In this document: piece by piece, positions 4,077 through 31,938 of the stretch
Layout: each line of letters opens with the position of its first letter
Numbering within the stretch: position 1 is the stretch's first letter
Origin: a virus
Lineage: Duplodnaviria; Caudoviricetes
Direction: 5' to 3' (one strand)
Length of the DNA: 64,000 bases
Virus record (IMG/VR): IMGVR_UViG_3300009979_000004
Coordinates: 24,837-88,836 of that record
Translations under genes and position numbers: made by a program
The notes under the pieces: generated by a model
Seen by the model: the letters and a program-made list of their open reading frames with translations, nothing else
What the model was told of the DNA's origin: nothing
Databases searched by the model: none

Positions 4077-4425
4077 GGTACTTGGACAGAACCTGTAAGA
4101 TGGTATGCCGGGAAGAGGCAGAATGCAGGAGCTCGCCTTTGGCCAAAGGAAAACCCTGGATGTCCAGGTTAATGCACCATAACTCACGTAGATATGAAGA
4201 CTTCTTACAGGAGGGCAGGCATATTGAGCCTGCGAGGCTCCTGGATCTATCTCAGGAAAGGATGTAGGATGTGAAACTACCTGACTAGCTTAACATGCCT
4301 GCTGGGCTTAGTCAGCTCCCAAGGGTGAGCAGTTGCAGTAGACCAGAAAGTGAACCACCATACTGGGATAAATAGTAAACTATTGCAGCTGAGTGCAGAG
4401 GGAACTAAAATTAGTGAGCCTAAAT
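4077..4425 (+). ncRNA. candidate ~350-nt structured RNA with a pseudoknot, family unknown
   Basis: Many complementary pairs, e.g. 4092-4100/4203-4211, 4215-4222/4295-4302, 4281-4286/4310-4315 and 4330-4341/4380-4391; more G/C-rich than the flanks; no convincing ORF. Strand assumed from the surrounding genes. Confidence 0.65.
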
Positions 4426-6804: not shown

Positions 6805-6956
6805 TATGTGGTGGCGGAAATTAGACGCTAAATATGGAAAGTCCTACGTGTAGTGTGGAAACTACGTAATAGCCTTAGCAGCTATATGATGAGCGTGGCC
6901 CAGCTGAAAAGCTAACGCCTTATGACCATTACAGGTATCGAATCCTGTCCACAAAA
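6805..6956 (+). ncRNA. tRNA-Leu(UAG)-like RNA with large insertions around the anticodon arm
   Basis: Acceptor TATGTGG/CCACAAA (6 of 7 paired); Leu-type D arm TG-GCG-GAAATTAGA-CGC; ATAGC-CTTAGCA-GCTAT stem-loop; T arm ACAGG-TATCGAAT-CCTGT. Confidence 0.7.
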
Positions 6957-10931: not shown

Positions 10932-11453
10932 ATGGATCGCAGCGAATTGACCTATCACAGATCTCCAAGATTTGTTCTTAAGAGCAGTAACATCAAACGG
11001 TACATTGATATCCTTATAGGAGATTATAAATTTCATGGTGACGAACAAGCGGGCAGCCCTCTTCTGGTTGTACTGGATGGTTTCACAGTGGCTTCGGAAA
11101 AGCAGTCTCAGGTAAGAACTTTCCTGATGGAAGAACCAGGAATAGAATTTTTCAACTGGTATATGAATCTGCATAAGGTCTTCGTACAGGTTATGCTGGA
11201 AGATAAATTCAGGACTTATAATCTGAGTAACTACGAGATCTACGTTTATAATAAACTCCTGATGATAGAAGGAAGGATTTATACACTGGATCAAATCAAG
11301 GGATTCATAGATCATTATACCAAGTATGATATTGTACAGGCACCTATAGAACCTATAGAGGATATGTCTGTATTCAAGATTGGATGTATTACTGTTTCTA
11401 TACAAGATATTAGAAAATTAGTGGCGTTTGCCGAGAAAGAGGGAGACCTCTAG
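10932..11453 (+). CDS. hypothetical phage protein
   Basis: 173-aa ORF with A-rich leader. Confidence 0.7.
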   Translation: MDRSELTYHRSPRFVLKSSNIKRYIDILIGDYKFHGDEQAGSPLLVVLDGFTVASEKQSQVRTFLMEEPGIEFFNWYMNLHKVFVQVMLEDKFRTYNLSNYEIYVYNKLLMIEGRIYTLDQIKGFIDHYTKYDIVQAPIEPIEDMSVFKIGCITVSIQDIRKLVAFAEKEGDL

Positions 11454-11536
11454 TCTGGTGTAGTTCAAGTTAGAACCCTGTATAGGTCCTGTAAAAAGGC
11501 TTCAGGCGGTTGGCAGTGCAAGTCTGCTCACCAGAA
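11454..11536 (+). ncRNA. tRNA-like RNA with an elongated anticodon arm (Tyr-GUA-like loop)
   Basis: Perfect 7-bp acceptor TCTGGTG/CACCAGA; D arm GTTC-AAGTTA-GAAC; T arm GGCAG-TGCAAGT-CTGCT; anticodon arm CCTG-tat-AGGTC-[CTGTAAAAA]-GGCTT-CAGG. Confidence 0.75.
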
Positions 11537-11558
11537 CTTAATATAAAAACTATATACA

Positions 11559-11816
11559 ATGTCAGAAAGAAAAGATGGTGCCCAGGTAAATGAAGAACTA
11601 ACCTTTGGACAAAAAGCTGTTGGCCTCACATTTAATCCAGGAGGTAATCCTTCTGTAAACAAGATCAAGAAACTATACGCAGATGTGATTGATGAACTGA
11701 ATGAAGAAAGAGAGAGAACAGAAAATCCTGAAGCTAAGAGACAACTGTCAGTAGCTATTACAGAAGCCCAGACATCTCAGATGTGGGCTGTGAAAGCTGT
11801 TACATGGCAATATTAA
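11559..11816 (+). CDS. Acb2/Tad1-like helical-hairpin protein (putative nucleotide-signal sponge)
   Basis: FGQKAVGLTFNP followed by RQLSVAITEAQTSQMWAVKAVTW, resembling the conserved second helix of Acb2/Vs.4/Tad1. Confidence 0.6.
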   Translation: MSERKDGAQVNEELTFGQKAVGLTFNPGGNPSVNKIKKLYADVIDELNEERERTENPEAKRQLSVAITEAQTSQMWAVKAVTWQY

Positions 11817-11924
11817 TATTTACTCATACAATCTAAAGTATAGAATCCTCGCTAGGTGTCTACCTTATGAGGTTTTTAGACGTAAAGAAATCAGAACACA
11901 CTTTTTGCCCTACAACACAACCTG

Positions 11925-11959
11925 GACCTCTTTTGATTTCTATCAGGAAGAGGTCTTTT
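11925..11959 (+). terminator. probable intrinsic terminator
   Basis: GACCTCTT...GAAGAGGTC hairpin followed by TTTT. Confidence 0.5.
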
Positions 11960-11969
11960 GTTATAAACT

Positions 11970-12275
11970 ATGAAGCGTAAGACATATAAGGATACTACAC
12001 AGTACAAACATCTCGCTGAGGGCGTTGTCAACTATCGTAATAAACTCTTACAATCTATCATTATGTATAAAGCAATTTGTAGAGTTATCTACAAGGAAGG
12101 TCCGTATTCTGTGACCAAGCAAATCTCTACTTTGGAGACCTACTATATGGTTTCTGACGGGATATATGTTTTCACTACCAGGGAATGCCCTGAGCTTACA
12201 CTTGAGGCCATACAGGCCGAAATGGAAGAATATAAATTCATGAGAAGAGAAAAGATCCGTGAAGATTCTGAATAA
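11970..12275 (+). CDS. hypothetical phage protein
   Basis: 101-aa ORF. Confidence 0.65.
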   Translation: MKRKTYKDTTQYKHLAEGVVNYRNKLLQSIIMYKAICRVIYKEGPYSVTKQISTLETYYMVSDGIYVFTTRECPELTLEAIQAEMEEYKFMRREKIREDSE

Positions 12276-24202: not shown

Positions 24203-24925
24203 ATGATGACTGTAGGAATCAATGAAAATCTGATTCTGTCGAAAGCAGAACTATTTACAGAGACAAATGTATATCTGGCTCTTTCGTTCAGAGAACGCTC
24301 TGGTGAAGCCTTGAGCGATTTTGCTCAACTAACTTCCGGTGGAGAAGTAGATACTGGTAATCCAATGGATCTGGCTCAAAAACTCTGGTGTCCTAAAGCT
24401 CCAAAAGATACTAAGCAGAATGGAGATACAAAGACTAAAGCAGAAAAGGTAAAAGAAGCCAGAGACGGATTGGGAGAAATTCAGAATACTTTAGTAGGAT
24501 TTCTCAAATGCTATACTACTACAGATAAGATCAAACTCAATCCTTTCAAAGGAATGGAAGATGTTATCAGTGAAGCCAATTATGAAGAGAAAATTGTTGA
24601 AGAGTATGTGCTACACAAAGCCTTCATTAATCTCTGTACTCAGTTCATTGAGCAGGTACAACCGTTCCTAAATAAAGATGAGTTCCCTATAAGGCTATTG
24701 TTGCTTCGTCAGAAAGACAAGCATTTCTTGGAGTTGAGAAGAAGATTTATCAAAGATAATCCCATAGTAGAACCTATGAGCATTCCAAGGGCCCAGACCA
24801 AGCTCAAATTCACCAAGCGTGAGATTGAGAATGGACAGGACAAGATGGAATATCTTACTCAAAGTGATGCAGATCAAGTTCCTCTGGAAAGTGGAGAAGT
24901 GAATGACATCTTCAATGAGAATTAA
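24203..24925 (+). CDS. hypothetical protein, possible ssDNA-binding protein
   Basis: Acidic tail ending DIF; lies between the ATPase and the primase. Confidence 0.45.
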   Translation: MMTVGINENLILSKAELFTETNVYLALSFRERSGEALSDFAQLTSGGEVDTGNPMDLAQKLWCPKAPKDTKQNGDTKTKAEKVKEARDGLGEIQNTLVGFLKCYTTTDKIKLNPFKGMEDVISEANYEEKIVEEYVLHKAFINLCTQFIEQVQPFLNKDEFPIRLLLLRQKDKHFLELRRRFIKDNPIVEPMSIPRAQTKLKFTKREIENGQDKMEYLTQSDADQVPLESGEVNDIFNEN

Positions 24926-31371: not shown

Positions 31372-31938
31372 ATGAATATACAGAACATAGTAAAAGAGCT
31401 TCATAAAGACAATCTATGCACTTATTTTGTTCTTCCTATGTTAAAGCTCAACAAGTTTAGATTCATTGCAGATTTTAACTTTGTAAACAGCTTTCTGTCC
31501 AGGGACAGAAGATTGATAGTGGTACAGGTTTTAGAGACACTCTTCTTTGAGCACAAGCTTTCACAGCATCCAAATTACAGGGGATTATATAAGGATGAAT
31601 TCAACAACAGATTCATCGTGTATGCTATCCCGATATTCTTTAAACGTGATGTGGAGTTATTCTGTAATGGAAGGTATAGCAGCATGTCTGATAAAGCTAA
31701 GGAACTCATCAGGCAATATTCCGGTTTGCTGTACCGTTCTATGAATACAGATGGACAGCTTGTTACCGATATACGCCTATTGGCTCTGGAGAAATCCAAG
31801 TCAGTCAGGAGTATGTGGGAAGATGTTCTTGACTGTACACTGGAAGAGAATCAGGAATTATTATCTATCCCTAAAGAGGATAGTTTCATGAGTATAGAAG
31901 ATTATAGTGTGATAAGTATGGACAACAAGGGCGGGTAG
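31372..31938 (+). CDS. hypothetical phage protein
   Basis: 188-aa last gene of the + strand arm. Confidence 0.75.
   Translation: MNIQNIVKELHKDNLCTYFVLPMLKLNKFRFIADFNFVNSFLSRDRRLIVVQVLETLFFEHKLSQHPNYRGLYKDEFNNRFIVYAIPIFFKRDVELFCNGRYSSMSDKAKELIRQYSGLLYRSMNTDGQLVTDIRLLALEKSKSVRSMWEDVLDCTLEENQELLSIPKEDSFMSIEDYSVISMDNKGG

Follow-up and report, generated by a model that had tools for sequence, protein, structure and literature searches.

A tRNA-shaped element with an over-long anticodon arm in the early gene array of an apparent crAss-like phage

We analysed the final 64 kb (hereafter the window) of an 88,836-bp IMG/VR virus record with a completeness rating of 97%, and found that positions 11454-11536 on the + strand hold a tRNA cloverleaf that is real and beyond chance. 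We put at about even the chance that this 83-nt element, with the discriminator A counted in, is a selected, non-decoding tRNA look-alike that is cut from an early polycistronic transcript. That it is under selection appears probable from the comparisons with related phages given below. A tRNA look-alike of this sort is a barely described kind. The parts of the element and the two genes that flank it are as follows.

10932-11453, + strand: upstream gene, 173 aa, family unassigned; its TAG stop (11451-11453) abuts the RNA
11454-11460, + strand: acceptor 5' strand UCUGGUG, pairing perfectly with 11529-11535 (inverted repeat)
11461-11462, + strand: U8 A9, preceding the D arm
11463-11476, + strand: D arm, 4-bp stem GUUC/GAAC and a 6-nt loop AAGUUA without GG
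11477-11506, + strand: enlarged anticodon arm, 30 nt, from the MFE fold and pair probabilities
11477-11480/11503-11506, + strand: basal helix of the arm, CCUG/CAGG (favoured register)
11481-11483, + strand: bulge UAU of the arm (favoured register)
11484-11486/11500-11502, + strand: arm helix AGG/CUU (favoured register)
11487, + strand: bulged U of the arm (favoured register)
11488-11490/11497-11499, + strand: arm helix CCU/AGG (favoured register)
11491-11496, + strand: 6-nt arm loop GUAAAA (favoured register)
11489-11497, + strand: 9-nt loop CUGUAAAAA (minor register)
11507-11511, + strand: variable loop CGGUU of class I size, from the fold
11512-11528, + strand: T arm, stem GGCAG/CUGCU and loop UGCAAGU, with the G53-C61 closing pair
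11529-11536, + strand: acceptor 3' strand CACCAGA and discriminator A; no CCA is encoded and CUUAA follows
11559-11816, + strand: downstream Acb2/Tad1-like gene, 85 aa; Pfam PF24729 (Acb2_Tad1_hairpin), phrog_717

The original prediction, which was made from the letters of the DNA alone, had placed a tRNA-like RNA with a lengthened anticodon arm at these coordinates, and both the place and the general description hold. The first base of the element immediately follows the TAG of the 173-aa ORF, the element is called as a tRNA gene by ARAGORN at default settings, its unconstrained minimum-free-energy fold is the cloverleaf, and its arm measures 30 nt instead of the normal 17 nt, an excess of ~12-13 nt. 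As predicted, the acceptor consists of 7 and the D stem of 4 Watson-Crick pairs. The T stem, which had been described as perfect, does form its five pairs, one of which is however G-U. The scaffold made of the acceptor, D and T stems has 16/16 pairs intact, all of them standard, in the layout of a cloverleaf (7-bp acceptor, D stem within the usual 3-4 bp, 5-bp T stem joined to the acceptor). In addition, U8, A14, A21 and a G46-type variable loop are all present. The upper body of a tRNA is thus retained in the form of the 12-bp acceptor/T coaxial stack, the T-loop motif and the D arm. These are also the parts of a processed tRNA-like module, namely an acceptor/T stack and a T-loop motif (U54-A58 and G53-C61 are present) at a position inside what would be a longer transcript. 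The T loop keeps U54, C56, A57 and A58, while G replaces U55, and this UGCAAGU loop with G55 is unique among the 58 tRNA-shaped elements of the clade described below. The 6-nt D loop contains a single G.

The arm can pair in more than one register, and its loop size depends on the register, being 6 nt in the favoured one and 8 or 9 nt in the alternatives. The favoured register has a free energy of -25.7 kcal/mol and a pair probability of ~0.93, whereas the 9-nt-loop register has -23.2 kcal/mol and ~0.05. Hence the loop that had been read as the canonical Tyr loop plus two As belongs to a minor register, and the upper helix AGGUC/GGCUU of that register contains two G-U pairs rather than the three that had been counted. 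From the D stem to the loop, the favoured fold stacks ~14 pairs with two bulges, compared with 10 pairs in a tRNA, i.e., four extra pairs. Folded alone, the arm has an MFE of -7.6 against -4.1 +/- 1.8 in shuffles and does better than 96% of them, which is only modest support for the arm structure. Inside the arm, the direct repeat CCTGTA occurs at 11477 and 11488 (11-nt spacing), and the 12-13-nt excess is about one repeat unit, so that a slipped duplication is a plausible origin of the extra length. A fold with two mini-hairpins was rejected at -21.4 kcal/mol against -25.7 for the favoured one, as was an archaeal bulge-helix-bulge motif, since inspection gives just one 3-nt bulge and no inner helix.

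We next compared the element with shuffled sequences. ARAGORN was run at default settings on dinucleotide shuffles of the whole 88.8-kb genome and made no call in one set of 100 and 4 in another of 500, corresponding to ~0.007 per genome, and a stem-pattern scan written for this analysis gave 0 matches in 1.33 Mb of shuffles. The original prediction had named assembly errors in the arm, seen in reads, as something that would refute it. There is no sign of such an error: the Logan assembly of the one run with this sequence is identical over 11000-12000, at a k-mer depth of ~23. Note that this run is a plant metagenome and probably the source sample, so that the comparison is with a separate assembly but not with independent DNA. 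Among the public sequencing runs, this DNA was found in that one plant-metagenome DNA run, and no RNA run was among them.

The element does not fit any ordinary class of tRNA that we considered. The Rfam tRNA model RF00005 gave no match at the gathering score, nor at E<=10 when 301 nt were searched. A canonical anticodon arm (5-bp stem, 7-nt loop, U33 and a purine at 37) is lacking, and so is a canonical elbow (G18-G19 with U54 U55 C56), as is evident from the D loop AAGUUA and the T loop UGCAAGU. The default ARAGORN reading, a tRNA-Thr(GGU) with a long variable region, was rejected because it folds at -12.9 kcal/mol against -25.7. Bacterial tRNA-Tyr is marked by G1-C72, A73, a long variable arm and a GUA anticodon in a 7-nt loop. 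The element has U1-A72 and a 5-nt variable loop, so that A73 alone fits a Tyr body, and GUA is exposed only in the minor 9-nt-loop register. A tmRNA was also rejected, as ARAGORN -m finds none, position 3-70 is U-A and not G3-U70, and there is no Rfam match. Furthermore, all single excisions in the 35-nt middle were enumerated exhaustively in 12 layouts that differ in junction and variable-loop length, with a fully paired 5-bp stem, U33 and a purine at 37 asked for, and none yields a canonical arm.

Judged by its sequence, the source genome is a distant, environmental, uncultured crAss-like phage. The nearest cultured or deposited phages to its family-A DNA polymerase are of the crAss001 type at ~25% identity, and hundreds of uncultured relatives share 45-72% identity. 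A 3,833-aa ORF is present whose size is that of the crAss-type giant virion RNA polymerases. The element lies on the + strand in an early/middle gene array, 3 kb upstream of the polymerase gene. The genes around it are on the same strand and tightly packed, and the element fills the one 105-nt gap on the coding strand, starting 0 nt after the upstream stop and ending 22 nt before the ATG of the 85-aa ORF. Because that gene starts 22 nt after the RNA, the RNA and the Acb2/Tad1-like gene must be co-transcribed. The 85-aa protein matches PF24729 with an E value of 3.3e-11 and 43.6 bits, above the curated cutoff of 27, and is a candidate sponge for CBASS or Thoeris immune signalling nucleotides. 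A homologue of its gene is found in a related crAss-like locus (L003:1224-1484). Two genes upstream of this homologue, an ordinary tRNA(UCA) takes a similar slot that leaves 6 nt to the preceding stop and 13 nt to the following start. For the upstream 173-aa protein, a collection of 15 billion proteins yielded only four relatives.

A promoter and terminator scan of the locus found nothing above the shuffle level with a sigma-70 model, outside which Bacteroidota and virion-polymerase promoters lie. When 30 ORFs were scanned for RNA ligase, splicing endonuclease and tRNA enzymes, none was found, and the proteins identified were only replication/repair proteins, an Rv2179c-like exonuclease and the Acb2-like protein. 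Rfam at the gathering score gave no match anywhere in the window, positions 4092-4391 included. In addition, the six bases UAUACA at 11553-11558, directly before the AUG of the Acb2-like gene, have their complement, UGUAUA, around the bulge of the long arm (11479-11484). Such pairing could in principle mask the start region of this gene. It is probably due to chance, as about one or two such 6-mers are estimated in 121 nt.

To place the element among its relatives, we scanned 80 loci around related polymerase genes (1.26 Mb), which contain 58 tRNA-shaped elements, 53 of them distinct. A canonical anticodon arm is found in 29/53 of the distinct elements and a non-canonical one in 24/53 (~45%), and in 14 elements the D and T arms are 52-162 nt apart. 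With introns allowed, ARAGORN reports ten long-middle tRNA-shaped genes in the loci and 0 in 100 shuffles. Nine distinct sequences form a family with a tRNA-Leu-like scaffold, AGUCAGG-UG-GCGGAAUUGGUAGACGC ... ACAGGUUCGAAUCCUGU-CCUGACU-A (in DNA form, AGTCAGG-TG-GCGGAATTGGTAGACGC ... ACAGGTTCGAATCCTGT-CCTGACT-A), for which we found no description in the literature searched. All acceptor and T-stem pairs of this family are kept through compensatory changes, the anticodon/variable middle ranges from 36 to 162 nt, and three members pass the Rfam tRNA threshold. The studied element was rejected as a further member, since its D arm, T arm and acceptor differ. The members and a third tRNA-shaped element of the studied genome are listed below.

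G000 24437-24561: Leu-like family member in the same genome as the studied element, just before the window
L004:344-555: Leu-like family member
L021:2078-2182: Leu-like family member
L024:304-390: Leu-like family member
L028:4181-4287: Leu-like family member
L035:3152-3321: Leu-like family member
L075:5422-5537: Leu-like family member
L014:6183-6313: Leu-like family member
L059:12834-12967: Leu-like family member
window ~6805-6955 (G000 31641-31791), + strand: third tRNA-shaped element of the genome, with a Leu-type D arm

The third element has an 8-nt T loop (TATCGAAT) and ~100 nt that separate its D and T arms and contain a 5-bp/7-nt hairpin with CUUAGCA, and flanking CTCTGTGTG/CACACAGAG repeats extend its closing helix. 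No canonical tRNA was found in the studied genome, which has three aberrant tRNA-shaped elements in all. The part of the tRNA that selection holds in this clade is its upper half.

Several other features of the related loci were observed. Otherwise normal-looking tRNAs with 6-nt or 8-nt anticodon loops are reported by ARAGORN as 'tRNA-???' at the following positions.

L012:959-1583: odd-loop tRNA
L005:21825-21899: odd-loop tRNA
L028:4898-4973: odd-loop tRNA
L007:2395-2468: odd-loop tRNA
L029:3081-3152: odd-loop tRNA

Suppressor tRNAs of the opal (UCA) and amber (CUA) kinds are present in L003, L009, L012, L024 and L029. Rfam group I intron matches were obtained in related crAss-like contigs at L014:18524-18785 (82.8 bits) and L015:11887-12162 (58.7 bits), the latter inside the region that matches the DNA polymerase. 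A 20-tRNA cluster includes a 77-nt tRNA-shaped element without an ARAGORN call (L005:19944-20020), whose acceptor and T arm are the closest to those of the studied element among the loci (25/34 scaffold positions) and whose anticodon region is unpaired.

Conservation of the studied element itself was judged through the protein collection, from one 11-residue read-through peptide. In the lineage of P0122, P0126 and P0127, the protein corresponding to the upstream one is 70% identical and its stop codon is replaced by a Leu codon, so that the ORF runs on into the element as L-SGVVQERTPL. When the window is read through its TAG, the peptide is SGVVQVRTLYR. SGVVQ, which covers the acceptor 5' strand, U8 A9 and the 5' side of the D stem, is identical, and R-T is common to both over the D-stem 3' strand, whereas the D loop encodes V in one and E in the other and the first bases of the anticodon arm differ. 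The match of the read-through peptides implies that the nucleotides are near-identical over the acceptor 5' strand and the D stem. This pattern, short and indirect as it is, fits an RNA with a held scaffold and drifting loops and does not fit neutral decay, although part of the 11-residue match could reflect a translated tail. Homologous DNA of the element was not recovered by exact and gapped pattern searches of viral, metagenome and genome contigs, by protein-anchored scans with the upstream gene and an alignment of its relatives, by blastn and nhmmer against the 80 related loci, or by blastn against GenBank phages.

On the reading that we prefer, the element would be transcribed as part of a polycistronic early RNA. 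Host RNase P would cleave it at the 5' end, immediately behind the upstream stop codon, and RNase Z or a similar 3' activity would cut after A73, freeing a stable ~83-nt RNA that is possibly CCA-tailed. Such an excision would separate the upstream message from the Acb2/Tad1-like message and set the 5' end of the latter. The over-long arm, perhaps derived from a slipped duplication of CCUGUA(N)AGG, would bar the RNA from the ribosome. Once freed, the RNA may be a mere by-product of mRNA punctuation; alternatively, it may stand in for a tRNA and occupy a host factor, e.g., a tRNA-directed defence nuclease, and we favour neither of the two. Recognition by RNase P, RNase Z and the CCA-adding enzyme is assumed here, because the elbow is non-canonical and the Rfam tRNA model misses the element. 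An argument against excision is that the upstream message would have no 3' tail if it were cut right behind its stop codon.

The best-surviving alternative, in itself unlikely, is that the element is a decaying tRNA pseudogene, i.e., a former phage tRNA that underwent a slipped 11-12-nt duplication in the arm and loop mutations, lost its function and has not yet been purged. The CCTGTA repeat and an excess of about one repeat unit would be accounted for by this, as would G55 in the T loop, the D loop without GG, the failure of the Rfam tRNA model and a genome that is devoid of canonical tRNA and carries only this and two other aberrant elements. However, decay is hard to reconcile with a scaffold in which no pair has been lost and an arm that is well paired, and removing 11-14 nt anywhere in the middle restores no canonical arm. 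Moreover, a lineage in which the flanking protein is down to 70% identity still retains the 5' half, and aberrant anticodon domains on conserved, covarying scaffolds recur across the clade, which argues for selection over decay.

The decoy proposed in the original prediction fared partly well, in that a non-decoding or decoy role for the RNA is viable. Its specific form, in which the arm tip shows a tRNA-Tyr-like C-U-G-U-A-A-A and soaks up a tRNA-cutting nuclease or a tRNA-modifying enzyme, is a doubtful proposition that we rate just below the pseudogene. CUGUAAA does stand at the arm tip, and the decoy idea is attractive because the neighbour gene is anti-defence: the element lies 22 nt upstream of, and co-transcribed with, the Acb2/Tad1-like sponge gene. 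tRNA-directed defences and phage counter-measures to them are established, and the tRNAs of phage T5 counter the PARIS and retron defences. Cas12a3 cuts tRNA tails (PMC12851939). On the other hand, the register with the Tyr-like loop accounts for 5% of the pairing and its loop is then 9 nt and not 7, and the anticodon domains of the clade, including the middles of the sister elements, are hypervariable, which is a poor fit to mimicry of one fixed loop. No experimentally shown decoy RNA of this kind was found in the literature, as far as it was searched. An even more tentative extension is that the RNA belongs to a hitherto unrecognised class of phage non-decoding tRNA mimics with a counter-defence task. 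On this view a stable tRNA body, excluded from the ribosome by its long arm, would be made alongside the Acb2/Tad1-like protein and would titrate a host tRNA-targeting immune nuclease or sensor, so that an RNA sponge would accompany a protein sponge.

It is very improbable that the element is a working decoder, whether a frameshift-suppressing or an otherwise unusual tRNA with an enlarged anticodon loop. Its 9-nt-loop register offers a U in a U33-like place, GUA and a purine where position 37 would be, and tRNAs with 6-nt or 8-nt loops and suppressor anticodons are numerous in the relatives. Frameshift-suppressor tRNAs, however, have a normal 5-bp anticodon stem and an 8-nt loop. The four additional stacked pairs and the two bulges of the arm make decoding and frameshift suppression by the element unlikely, and judging from tRNA geometry the loop would be unable to reach the decoding centre with the 3' end placed in the peptidyl-transferase centre. 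The longest anticodon stems in known decoders are of 6 bp, in tRNA-Sec, tRNA-Pyl and mitochondrial tRNA-Ser (PMC7609411), and the arm exceeds any of them by ~4 stacked pairs. In addition, the body is not of the Tyr type and the elbow is altered. The long ORFs of the phage are all open in the standard code, and among them no split gene that obviously needs frameshifting was seen. The frameshifting tRNA that had been proposed is unlikely, and the nuclease-resistant tRNA proposed beside it presumes a working decoder, which the element probably is not.

A chance cloverleaf in an intergenic regulatory region is just as improbable. The lack of an Rfam match, a whole-sequence fold z-score of only -1.87 and the rare false calls that ARAGORN makes (4 in 600 shuffles in all) leave some room for it, but the low number of calls expected per genome, the exact position of the element in the one gap on the coding strand and the retention of its 5' half in a relative (P0122) speak against it. 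The least probable reading is a short-intron tRNA that is spliced to a normal one. ARAGORN with introns allowed does propose a tRNA-Pro(AGG) with a 13-nt intron, and Lak phages of Bacteroidota hosts do have tRNA genes with unexplained inserts, Tyr(GTA) included (PMC6784885), but the proposed product has a U-U stem mismatch, C37 and an A34 anticodon, the exhaustive single excisions give no suitable arm, and neither an RNA ligase nor a splicing endonuclease was found among the 30 scanned ORFs.

Should the RNA be expressed and processed, then crAss-like phages maintain tRNA bodies for a purpose besides decoding. This could be the punctuation of early polycistronic messages by host tRNA-trimming enzymes or a disturbance of tRNA-directed host functions, and either would be a first for phages. 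The under-counting and mis-naming of such genes by standard tRNA finders would be explained as well. Taken by itself, the element is one sparsely conserved example whose weight comes mainly from the clade pattern. In a survey of crAss-like phages (PMC7886860), suppressor tRNAs are mentioned, as are divergent tRNAs that may escape detection, but elements of this sort do not appear.

Among known systems, the nearest published case is that of the Lak megaphages of Prevotella, with "enigmatic introns" in their tRNA genes (Devoto et al. 2019, PMC6784885). Both have Bacteroidota-type hosts and tRNA-shaped genes that are over-long in the anticodon region, and in both the top half is intact and a known splicing route is absent. 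However, the Lak inserts are interpreted as introns, with a named tRNA left after their removal, whereas no excision gives the element a canonical arm, and the element differs further in an excess of only 12-13 nt and in its non-canonical elbow loops. The YrlA-type bacterial and phage Y RNAs are also non-decoding tRNA mimics (Chen et al. 2014, PMC4201824). They have a long Ro-binding stem formed from their ends and lie next to rsr, whereas the element has a plain 7-bp acceptor, no rsr gene was seen and there is no Rfam match.

With canonical class I tRNAs (RF00005), the element shares the 7-bp acceptor, the 5-bp T stem and the 4-bp D stem, G53-C61, U54, C56, A58, U8, A14 and A21, the 5-nt variable loop, the discriminator A and a tRNA-type slot between early genes; it differs from them in the 30-nt arm in place of 17 nt, in G55, in the lack of G18-G19 and in having no readable anticodon. 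Frameshift suppressors of the sufD/sufJ type have a loop of more than 7 nt, as the element does in one register, but they combine it with a 5-bp stem and a canonical body, whereas the element has a lengthened, bulged stem and a loop of 6, 8 or 9 nt. The mascRNA of MALAT1, the tRNA-like TMER units of gammaherpesvirus 68 and the tRNA punctuation of mitochondria are non-decoding processing modules cut by RNase P and RNase Z, and in terms of function such eukaryotic, viral and organellar modules are the closest analogues. We know of no comparable tRNA-like processing module shown in a phage operon. As in the element, an altered anticodon arm is joined to a cloverleaf whose acceptor/T stack is intact. 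These modules lie within longer transcripts and their excision defines the ends of neighbouring RNAs, a processing that we only infer for the element, and they are eukaryotic or organellar, whereas the element belongs to a phage operon.
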